Positions 33,085-34,941 of a stretch of 64,000 nt of DNA are shown here, piece by piece. Source of the DNA: Heptranchias perlo. Taxonomy: Eukaryota. Location of the stretch: the NCBI RefSeq assembly GCF_035084215.1, contig NW_027139559.1, forward strand, positions 6,758,001 to 6,822,000. The letters are read 5' to 3'. Position numbers and translations under genes: made by a program. Under the pieces are notes generated by a model. That model was given only the letters and a program-made list of their open reading frames with translations, did no database searches and was not told where the DNA came from. Every line of letters begins with the position of its first letter. Position 1 is the first letter of the stretch.

Positions 33085-33090
33085 TTTATT
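33085..33090 (-). terminator. Polyadenylation signal of the defensin-like gene
   Basis: AATAAA on minus strand ~150 nt after the stop codon. Confidence 0.6.
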
Positions 33091-33242
33091 TCTGAGTAAA
33101 GCCCATTATTCAGACAGCAGTAATACAGGGTCAGGGGTTGTGGGACCTACACAATCAAACAGAGCCAGCTCCCCGTGAACGAAGGTTTCATTCAGTGAGA
33201 ACTTGGAGAGCTCGGGCTGGTGAGAATCCATCACTGGATCTT

Positions 33243-34802
33243 TCACTCGTTCGGTCCACAGCATTGGAACCCAACGCCGCAGAATATCGGCAGTGTCTCC
33301 CCGTTTGTGTTACAGGGGCCTTCACGACACATTGCTCCAAACAAGCTGCAGGTGTCGACGTGACCTAAAATCCAAAATGAAGAGTTAATTAATTGACCGT
33401 TCTGGACACAGAGGGAAGGAGAACAATGAGAAAACATGAAGCTGAGTCTGTCCGTGTTACTGGGACTCACTCTGGACCACACATGAACCTCAGCTCATTT
33501 GTACTTCATTAAACCTCCCCGACCTGCAGAGACTCACTCTTTGTTCTCAAGGGCAGCCCAATAGTTTTTTCCACAGAATTGAGCCCACCGTTCGCGCTTT
33601 CTGAGACTAGAGACAAAGAAAAGAAAGATCTAACAATTCCATGGCGCCTTTCCCGTTAACACAAGGGCCCAAAGAGTTTCACAGACAAAGGATTATTTCT
33701 GAAGTACCGACACTGTTTTGTAACCAAATTGCTCACAGCAAAGTCCCACAAACAGCAAATGAGATTTGACAGTGTGGGGAGTTTCTGGTGATGTTAGTTG
33801 AGAGAGTGATGTTGGTCCAAGAAACCAGGAGAACTCCCAGCTCTTCAAATAATGTCACCAAGTGTTTCCTGCCCCATGAACAGGTAGACAGGGTCTCCGT
33901 TTAACGATTCATTCAAAAGATGACACCTCCAACAGTGCTGCACTCCCCCAGTGCTGGGCTGTATGTACTGGAGTGGAACATCAGCCCATAACTTGTTCAC
34001 TCAACTCCCAACTGAGGCAAACTGACACCCGGCTCCTGAAAATTGATAGTTTCACCCCTTGACTCGTCCACTTATTTAGTGTCCTCATATCCTGATCTCT
34101 ATGAAGGCTGCAGAATTATTAGTATTTAAAAACCTATTTTGAAACCCTTTTGATCCAATCCCCTCCCCTCATGTTATGAAAATCTGACTCATGTCTGGGG
34201 ATCGGTTCCTCAGACGCCTCCAGTATCACTCCCAATTCACCATTCTTTGTCTGTGGGTATGAGCAGTGAGTGTGGGGGAAAGGGGCTGAAATAGTTCCAG
34301 ATCCCGTCCACATTCTCACCCTTTGTAGCAGGCAGCACTGATCGGGAGCAGGAGCTGTGAGATTCCCACTCCACAGTACCTGGGTACCGAGGCCAATTAC
34401 AGTCTCCCAAACAGGTCAATGCCCCGGTTGAGATCCGGTGACTCGGCACTGGCCAGTAATTTGTGCTTTAATTCCTGGTCTGTTTGGATCCTCACACAAC
34501 ACCCACCATTCCCACTCCCCGCTCAGGTACCGACTAAACAATCGGGGGATTTACCTGTTGAACTGGTTCAGATTAAATTCTTCAGTCATTCTTAAAATTT
34601 TACAATCGTGATCATTTAACCAATCGAACAGTGAGATTCAGTCAGAGAATAAAATAGTTTAAACACAATGAAACTGTCTGAACACTTGGTGCTGAGATCG
34701 GAGAAATTTACCTCCGAAACCATTGTAACCATCACAAGATTGAGCAGTGATGGACTGAGTCAGCACCAGGACTACAAATGCCAAGAACAGAACTTTCATC
34801 AT
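33243..34802 (-). CDS. Three-exon secreted beta-defensin-like prepropeptide (93 aa). Exon 1 34802-34712, exon 2 33606-33538, exon 3 33364-33243.
   Basis: Spliced product MMKVLFLAFVVLVLTQSITA-QSCDGYNGFGVSESANGGLNSVEKTIGLPLRTKS-HVDTCSLFGAMCREGPCNTNGETLPIFCGVGFQCCGPNE*. Cys spacing C-x6-C-x4-C-x10-C-x5-CC. GT/AG sites G|GTAAAT, ctag|TC, A|GTGAGT, tttag|GT; both introns phase 1. 91+69+122 = 282 nt, in frame. Confidence 0.8.
33620..34030 (-). mobile_element. Diverged SacSINE/DeuSINE-like copy in intron 1 of the defensin-like gene
   Basis: CACAGCAAAGTCCCACAAACAGCAA and ACAGTGCTGCACTCCCCCAGT, reverse complement of the SINE at 10905-11362. Confidence 0.65.
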
Positions 34803-34880
34803 CTTCCGCTGAGTTCCTCAGCGTCAGGATCAGTCGGCAGGAGTACTCGCGTTCTGTATCTAGACTCAGAGAGTTTGCTG

Positions 34881-34941
34881 TATTTATAATCACGTATATG
34901 GGGAGTGACTCTCTGAAAATATCCAGGGAAAGGAATTTCCC
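34881..34941 (-). promoter_or_regulatory. Defensin-like gene promoter: TATA box and NF-kB site
   Basis: TATAAATA at 34888-34881 and GGGAAATTCC at 34941-34932 (minus strand), ~80 and ~135 nt upstream of the ATG. Confidence 0.7.

Follow-up and report, generated by a model that had tools for sequence, protein, structure and literature searches.

A probable two-exon gene for a peptide of predicted beta-defensin fold in Heptranchias perlo, most likely one of about 190 copies

A short cysteine-rich reading frame on the minus strand of a Heptranchias perlo contig raises the question of what peptide it encodes, how its gene is spliced and whether the gene stands alone. The window analysed here is the whole 64,000-nucleotide stretch at positions 6,758,001 to 6,822,000 of contig NW_027139559.1 (assembly GCF_035084215.1). 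The first-pass annotation had proposed a single three-exon gene for an acidic beta-defensin-like peptide with a long propiece and an NF-kB promoter. We find that the gene probably has two exons and encodes a six-Cys peptide of predicted beta-defensin fold, and that it most likely belongs to a family of about 190 copies evolving by birth and death in this shark.

Gene structure and splicing

The features of the locus, in window coordinates, are the following (L020 is a paralogous locus and C1392 a contig of the same genome).

34932..34941, minus strand: kB-like site GGGAAATTCC, 44 nt upstream of the TATA box
34881..34888, minus strand: TATA box TATAAATA
34712..34802, minus strand: exon 1, coding part, 91 nt, phase 1; signal peptide and leader
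33365..34711, minus strand: single intron of the two-exon model, 1347 nt, GT..AG; matches the 1341-nt skip on L020
33538..33606, minus strand: middle block (the proposed exon 2), 69 nt, with AG/GT in the five-copy clade; at most a cryptic cassette exon
33243..33364, minus strand: last exon, coding part and stop, 122 nt; core C-x6-C-x4-C-x10-C-x5-CC
33085..33090, minus strand: AATAAA polyadenylation signal
35217..35594, minus strand: degenerate older copy of promoter plus signal exon (identity 74-79%), common to most paralogues
32459..55668, no strand assigned: segmental-duplication unit carrying the gene, 98.7-99.7% identical to a copy at C1392:5.06 Mb
30783-32774: 67-bp tandem repeat at the left edge of the unit

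The kB-like site, the TATA box, the polyadenylation signal and the three GT/AG-bounded pieces all lie exactly where they had been placed. When joined, the pieces (91, 69 and 122 nt) have GT/AG ends, meet in phase 1 at both junctions and give a 93-aa frame with Cys at positions 23, 59, 66, 71, 82, 88 and 89. Exon 1 encodes a hydrophobic signal peptide of 20 residues followed by a Gly-rich leader of 10 residues; hydropathy analysis bears out the signal peptide, with a hydrophobic core (9-residue hydropathy up to 3.5) and small residues at 18 and 20. The seventh Cys reported earlier is Cys23, located in this leader, and the odd number of Cys is confirmed.

The TATA box is identical in 40 of the 52 other intact copies of the gene, and AATAAA is present in all 99 other loci examined. 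The idea of an NF-kB promoter fares less evenly: the five-copy clade of the window gene carries the exact kB consensus, but none of the 52 other intact copies does, and 48 of the 52 keep the 5′ half-site GGGAAA. Seven matches to the kB consensus are found within the whole window. In the older duplicate at 35217-35594 (minus strand), a signal-like frame is still open and an obvious donor is absent.

The middle block is 69 nt long in only the five near-identical clade copies; in the other 97 of the 102 copies mapped it measures 67-68 nt, a length that breaks the frame, and in 72 of those 97 the flanking AG..GT is missing. It changes at 0.86 steps per site, compared with 0.92-1.0 for the intron and 2.2 for the core, and is 99% identical to the block skipped on L020. 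The length of exon 1 ranges from 82 to 115 nt across copies, yet is 1 mod 3 (phase 1) in 89 of 94; since phase 1 is kept through exon-1 insertions and deletions, exon 1 appears to join the last exon directly.

Contigs were available from three runs (X1, X2 and X3) of one sample that are guessed to be RNA, no run listed being on record as such; the splice joints seen in them are those of paralogues, not of the window gene's clade. X1 contigs join position 2927 of L020 to position 4269, skipping 1341 nt bounded by GT..AG; the shorter flank of the joint is 31 letters. Another X1 contig, from a relative differing by one letter, runs from 2927 to 4270. The L020 variants were found in an X1 contig (8 of the 8 listed, with 10 differences in both). 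Among the joints listed, none in the X1 contigs leads into the L020 homologue of the middle block (4015-4082, AG/GT present). In an X2 contig the signal exon is joined to the 3′UTR with 162 letters between, and this number, being 45 + 117, fits a 106-nt exon 1 followed by the last exon with no middle exon. X3 contigs cover neither exon, and none of the X1-X3 contigs listed, which drop rare forms, is specific to the clade's exon-1 end or last exon. From the paralogue joints we infer that the window gene itself is spliced in the same two-exon manner.

The long propiece and its RTKS "furin site" are most likely intron sequence. The three-exon model, the propiece, the hepcidin-like layout and the furin site all arose from a frame-preserving intron block being read as an exon, and none of them is retained: the block is frame-breaking in most copies, evolves at the intron rate and is skipped on L020; the ~34-aa propiece ending in RTKS comes from it and is not coding in the two-exon model; and R-x-K/R-R, of which RTKS had been taken for a near miss, occurs in the leader of none of the 57 intact paralogues. 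Hepcidin has eight Cys and a propiece ending in a furin site. The shark gene resembles it in phase-1 GT-AG introns and a signal peptide only, and its peptide differs in having six core Cys, a predicted beta-defensin fold and, once the middle block is dropped, neither propiece nor furin site.

We consider it quite improbable that a three-exon form is genuine in the five-copy clade only, a one-base gain there having produced a cassette exon that adds 23 residues ending in RTKS. The block is indeed 69 nt long and open in all five clade copies, with phase 1-1 junctions, AG/GT ends and an 82% pyrimidine tract, but AG..GT also surrounds the 67-68-nt block in 25 of the 97 other copies, including L020, which skips it, and the intron-like rate and near-identity to the skipped L020 block speak against it as well. 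Under the two-exon model, the product of the window gene would be 70 aa long, with a 20-residue signal and a 50-residue mature peptide of predicted net charge -4 and pI 4.4 with seven Cys. The last-exon peptide has four D/E, one R and a pI of 4.6.

Identity and predicted fold of the peptide

The six-Cys motif has a single match in the window and did not occur in 60 simulated 64-kb windows. Its six Cys are invariant in 49 of 49 aligned family proteins, and their spacing lies within the beta-defensin range C-x6-C-x(3-5)-C-x(8-10)-C-x(5-7)-CC, as given in the available part of PMC6716921. The core of the window peptide is predicted to fold like human beta-defensin-2: the model (pLDDT 80) consists of a short helix and three strands (H4-7, E11-14, E21-27, E32-37). 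In a search of 48,161 chains, the eight best of the 35 matches listed were vertebrate beta-defensins (Z 4.6-3.7), among them human beta-defensin-2 (Z 4.6, rmsd 2.6, 36 residues aligned) and AvBD3 (rmsd 1.7, 35 aligned), and the 13 best Foldseek matches were human beta-defensins 1-3 (TM 0.62-0.72, E 0.15-0.5); Z values that are all below 5 and E values of at least 0.15 are modest, as expected for a 39-residue model, and not decisive.

Below the beta-defensins in the fold list stand a big-defensin core, alpha-defensins and toxins of the same fold. Big defensins have a hydrophobic N-terminal domain of roughly 40 residues. The shark peptides share with them the C-terminal beta-defensin-like core (Z 3.5 for the C-terminal half of an oyster big defensin) but have a leader of 7-18 residues and no long hydrophobic N-terminal domain.

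A family profile searched against the PDB retrieved beta-defensin 106 as its best match (E 0.017), with the Cys in register in the alignment, and a consensus human beta-defensin; these were the sole two matches up to E 10. Structure prediction and Pfam, both suggested at first pass, gave different answers, the predicted fold being beta-defensin-like and Pfam empty for the window peptide. With E values up to 1 admitted, PF13841 is matched by only 13 of the 49 family members (the best at 0.0086); three match PF00711, and a PF13841 search of the genome gave six weak matches, none over the cut-off and none a family member. No homologue of the 40-aa peptide was seen among the longer proteins of a 5.8-billion-protein set, and a 31-member profile found none among proteins of 85-2000 aa (3151 candidates) or 20-84 aa (six candidates); with so short a query, both are weak tests. 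Motif, profile, fold and gene layout agree on a beta-defensin identity, with weak sequence support for membership. The description of a secreted beta-defensin-like peptide is supported by the motif, the profile, the predicted fold and the hydrophobic signal, and its gene looks unannotated.

Copies, selection and genomic surroundings

When the last-exon peptide was searched against its own genome, at least 150 matches were obtained (150 of 197 candidates were scored), 148 of the 150 lacking an internal stop and five being identical to the query. A 28-nt 3′UTR marker occurs 194 times in the genome (81 + 113), and a control 0 times. The 150 matches listed fall on contigs C1338 (60), C1286 (26), C49 (23) and C1392 (9), with three on two small contigs and 29 on 22 others. 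In the paralogues the entire gene is duplicated, together with its introns, at an identity of about 84-87% over 3.2 kb; the copies were made by repeated segmental duplication. The main point missed at first pass, where a single gene was seen, is this set of about 190 copies under diversifying selection.

Among 104 sampled loci, 57 are intact two-exon genes, 10 have no mappable exon 1 and 37 are broken by a dead splice site, a stop, a frameshift or a lost Cys; 57 of 104 is a biased rate, as the sample favoured distinct sequences and took nine of the ~30 dispersed copies. Loci L006-L015 (seven of them re-fetched as longer loci; L011, L014 and L015 uncounted) and L039 (too short, at 433 nt) were left out of the 104. 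The count of 57 may be low, given that four copies scored as having a dead donor have an in-phase alternative GT. In these four (L024, L036, L037 and L044, on C49), the usual donor is lost; if the GT located 9 nt upstream were used, exon 1 would be 73 nt long and its leader the shortest in the family. If the proportion of 57 in 95 sampled array loci, a non-random sample, held for the ~160 array copies, extrapolation would put the number of intact genes at ~100.

The 57 intact genes encode 49 distinct proteins with mature charges from -4 to +8. The acidity claimed for the mature part holds for the window copy, which lacks the cationic charge typical of beta-defensins, but not for the family: 36 intact copies are net positive, 10 neutral and 11 negative. 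No other clade is as acidic as that of the window gene, and a seventh Cys is found in no other intact one. Nor is acidity new among beta-defensins, an anionic flounder member being both antibacterial and chemotactic according to the part of PMC8698591 available.

About 30 of the 150 matches listed form one near-identical subfamily dispersed on many contigs, including C5, C40, C42, C45, C50, C72, C174, C1762 and C1836, several of them near contig starts or in inverted pairs. In all nine members sampled, exon 1 is absent or is 98 nt long and frame-breaking, and the subfamily gives the impression of a pseudogene carried within a large dispersed repeat. Haplotype duplicates are an unlikely source of the copy number: the four main contigs hold different subfamilies. 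Intron divergence is at least 10% in 810 of 1081 pairs of copies; near-identical copies could include assembly doubles.

Selection was analysed in 47 distinct intact genes on a tree built from introns. Omega, estimated as one ratio per region, is 7.9 in the leader (lnL -821.6 versus -857.5 at omega 1, a gain of 36), 1.32 (not significant) in the core, or 1.67 when Cys codons are omitted (2dlnL 7.3), and 0.95 in the signal, where there is little constraint; gene conversion and the hard alignment of the leader could inflate these values. In parsimony steps per site, the intron scores 0.98, the core 2.2 and the leader 4.9, and the rate peaks are confined to leader and core. At codon positions 1, 2 and 3 of the leader, the counts are 6.4, 6.0 and 2.3 steps per site, and this excess at first and second positions, ~2.7 times the third, points to selection; synonymous rates are also up, by 1.7-1.9-fold. 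The charge spread from -4 to +8 results from selection, seen as omega above 1, that acts on the leader and, within the core, on the positions separating the Cys. AID-type hypermutation was considered as a source of diversity and rejected: WRC/GYW sites in the core show no excess (1.0 steps per site versus 2.1-2.6), and the first 300 nt of the intron have no raised rate.

The gene is located at the left edge of its duplication unit, ~5 kb from an IgNAR V exon whose best PDB match is a shark VNAR (E 5e-27). This exon (near 27891-28175) is part of an IgNAR V-D-J minicluster at 27580-29030 on the plus strand, with octamer, leader, V exon, signal-like heptamers and J (near 28960-29022); no C exon for it was found in the window. 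Likeness to complete five-C-domain IgNAR clusters ends within the 67-bp repeat at ~32460, the point at which the defensin duplication starts, and the C-less V-D-J is either an orphan left by rearrangement or an assembly join. On C1392, between 0.3 and 7.5 Mb, defensin copies (0.32, 0.51, 1.16, 1.42, 2.30, 3.75, 5.06, 6.79 and 7.10 Mb) and IgNAR clusters (V or C5 exons at 0.79, 1.65, 2.46, 3.07, 5.54, 5.80, 6.79 and 7.43 Mb) alternate over 7 Mb. The part of PMC12227049 available describes the elasmobranch antigen-receptor (IgH/TCR) complex with no mention there of defensin.

According to the available text of PMC6716921, cathepsin B marks the beta-defensin cluster in human, mouse and chicken. 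A cathepsin-B-type propeptide gave one match in the shark genome, at C8:303 kb; the 200 kb around it contain no six-Cys motif and no profile match under E 0.1, and none of the 150 family matches listed is on C8.

Elsewhere in the window, an intact-looking histone H2B gene is present at 61519-61899 on the plus strand (PF00125, E 2e-21) and also in the sister duplication. Satellite arrays occupy 35899-41730 (46-48 bp), 55900-60620 (46/82 bp), 30783-32774 (67 bp) and 741-2039 (40 bp), and there are many LINE reverse-transcriptase fragments.

Possible function and relation to known defensins

The reading that we favour, and consider likely, is that of a two-exon gene for a secreted peptide of beta-defensin fold, the family being a diversified host-defence repertoire. 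Exon 1 would supply the 20-residue signal and the short Gly-rich leader, and the last exon, across a phase-1 intron of ~1.35 kb, the six-Cys core; signal cleavage alone would free the ~50-residue peptide, without any propiece or furin cleavage being involved. Microbes would be the cause of selection on leader and core. By analogy with other beta-defensins, cationic members would act on microbial membranes, and for the acidic window member, binding to a leukocyte receptor or to some protein or glycan target would be more likely, possibly in the form of a dimer linked by the unpaired Cys23.

Another view, rather unlikely in our judgement, is that this is a reproductive-tract expansion serving sperm coating or maturation, as the epididymal beta-defensins of mammals do, with sexual selection in place of microbes driving the diversity. 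The fast adaptive change and the broad spread of charges would suit this view just as well, and the best profile match, beta-defensin 106, is epididymal; fertility roles of beta-defensins are also on record, being noted in the available part of PMC12278569. A TATA box with an upstream kB-like element would better suit an inducible immune gene, and the copies are interleaved with IgNAR clusters, which is linkage only. DEFB126 carries a long glycosylated C-terminal tail, and tails of this type occur in none of the 57 intact copies. Fitting either role of the family, the window copy might be a silent or decaying passenger of a recent segmental duplication; this we regard as unlikely. Broken loci or loci without exon 1 make up 47 of the 104 sampled, the odd Cys number is unique to the clade among intact copies, and the donor is GTAAAT in place of the usual GTAAGT, but the open frame, both splice sites, the TATA box and AATAAA are intact in all five clade copies, and, on the intron tree, the clade's branch matches those of intact sister clades in length; with so long a branch and the frame still open, the frame has lasted. 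Toxins of beta-defensin fold (crotamine, platypus defensin-like peptides and anemone neurotoxins) are among the fold matches, with Z of 2.4-3.2, and toxin families have a conserved signal and a hypervariable mature part, as this family does. A toxin is nevertheless very improbable indeed, such matches ranking under eight vertebrate beta-defensins and nothing pointing to a venom gland.

Tetrapod beta-defensins (human -1, -2 and -106, AvBD3, crocodile CpoBD13 and those of the Komodo dragon) share with the shark family the six-Cys motif and the predicted helix and three-strand fold, the same signal exon and single exon with the whole core (in the shark family, from paralogue splicing), and the same tandem expansion with pseudogenes and positive selection. 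The Komodo dragon cluster, in the available part of PMC6716921, comprises 66 beta-defensin genes of 2-3 exons, 53 of them cationic and 42 with five residues before CC, and the human count is 33; against these, the shark family has about 190 copies and, in a partial sample, 49 distinct intact proteins. It further differs from the tetrapod families in that its fastest-changing part is the 7-18-residue Gly-rich leader on exon 1, its arrays lie among IgNAR clusters on several multi-megabase contigs, with none found next to cathepsin B, and most of its members are below Pfam detection. With teleost beta-defensins it shares a prepeptide without a real propiece, a mature peptide of 4-6 kDa, six Cys and anionic members. 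Teleost genes have three exons, 1-5 copies, charges of +1 to +7 and a CPRRYK/R motif (PMC4690011, part available), whereas the shark genes have two exons, their copy number is about 190, and CPRRYK/R is absent from the gene models listed.

Our search of the literature on shark, elasmobranch and chondrichthyan beta-defensins, outside subscription journals and shark genome supplements, found no paper, and the family is apparently undescribed. Section 14 of a 2019 review of fish immunity, in the text available (PMC6795676), gives transferrin, squalamine and kenojeinin I as the only antimicrobials of sharks and skates, and no cartilaginous-fish defensin is named in it; in the part of PMC10707392 available, defensin occurs only in a reference. 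A spliced, positively selected beta-defensin family fills this cartilaginous-fish gap in antimicrobial lists. It also shows that the sister group of bony vertebrates has the two-exon layout known from tetrapods, and thus the teleost three-exon form may be derived.

A single acidic peptide is of modest interest beside a ~190-copy family among IgNAR clusters. The family offers about 50 natural variants on one scaffold, ranging in charge from -4 to +8 and having to function at high salt and urea. Through it, the question of shark infection resistance becomes directly testable, and a family of innate effectors is tied to the way in which IgNAR clusters duplicate. We tentatively put forward, at somewhat less than even chances, that sharks have the largest beta-defensin repertoire yet known from a vertebrate, with ~100 intact genes in this species that annotation overlooked, that moved from the usual cathepsin-B cluster into duplication-prone IgNAR territory and that diversified mainly through the hypervariable Gly-rich arm, over a fixed disulfide scaffold, into an antibody-like innate library. 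If true, this germline-encoded repertoire would be a main and so far unrecognised arm of shark mucosal or leukocyte defence.
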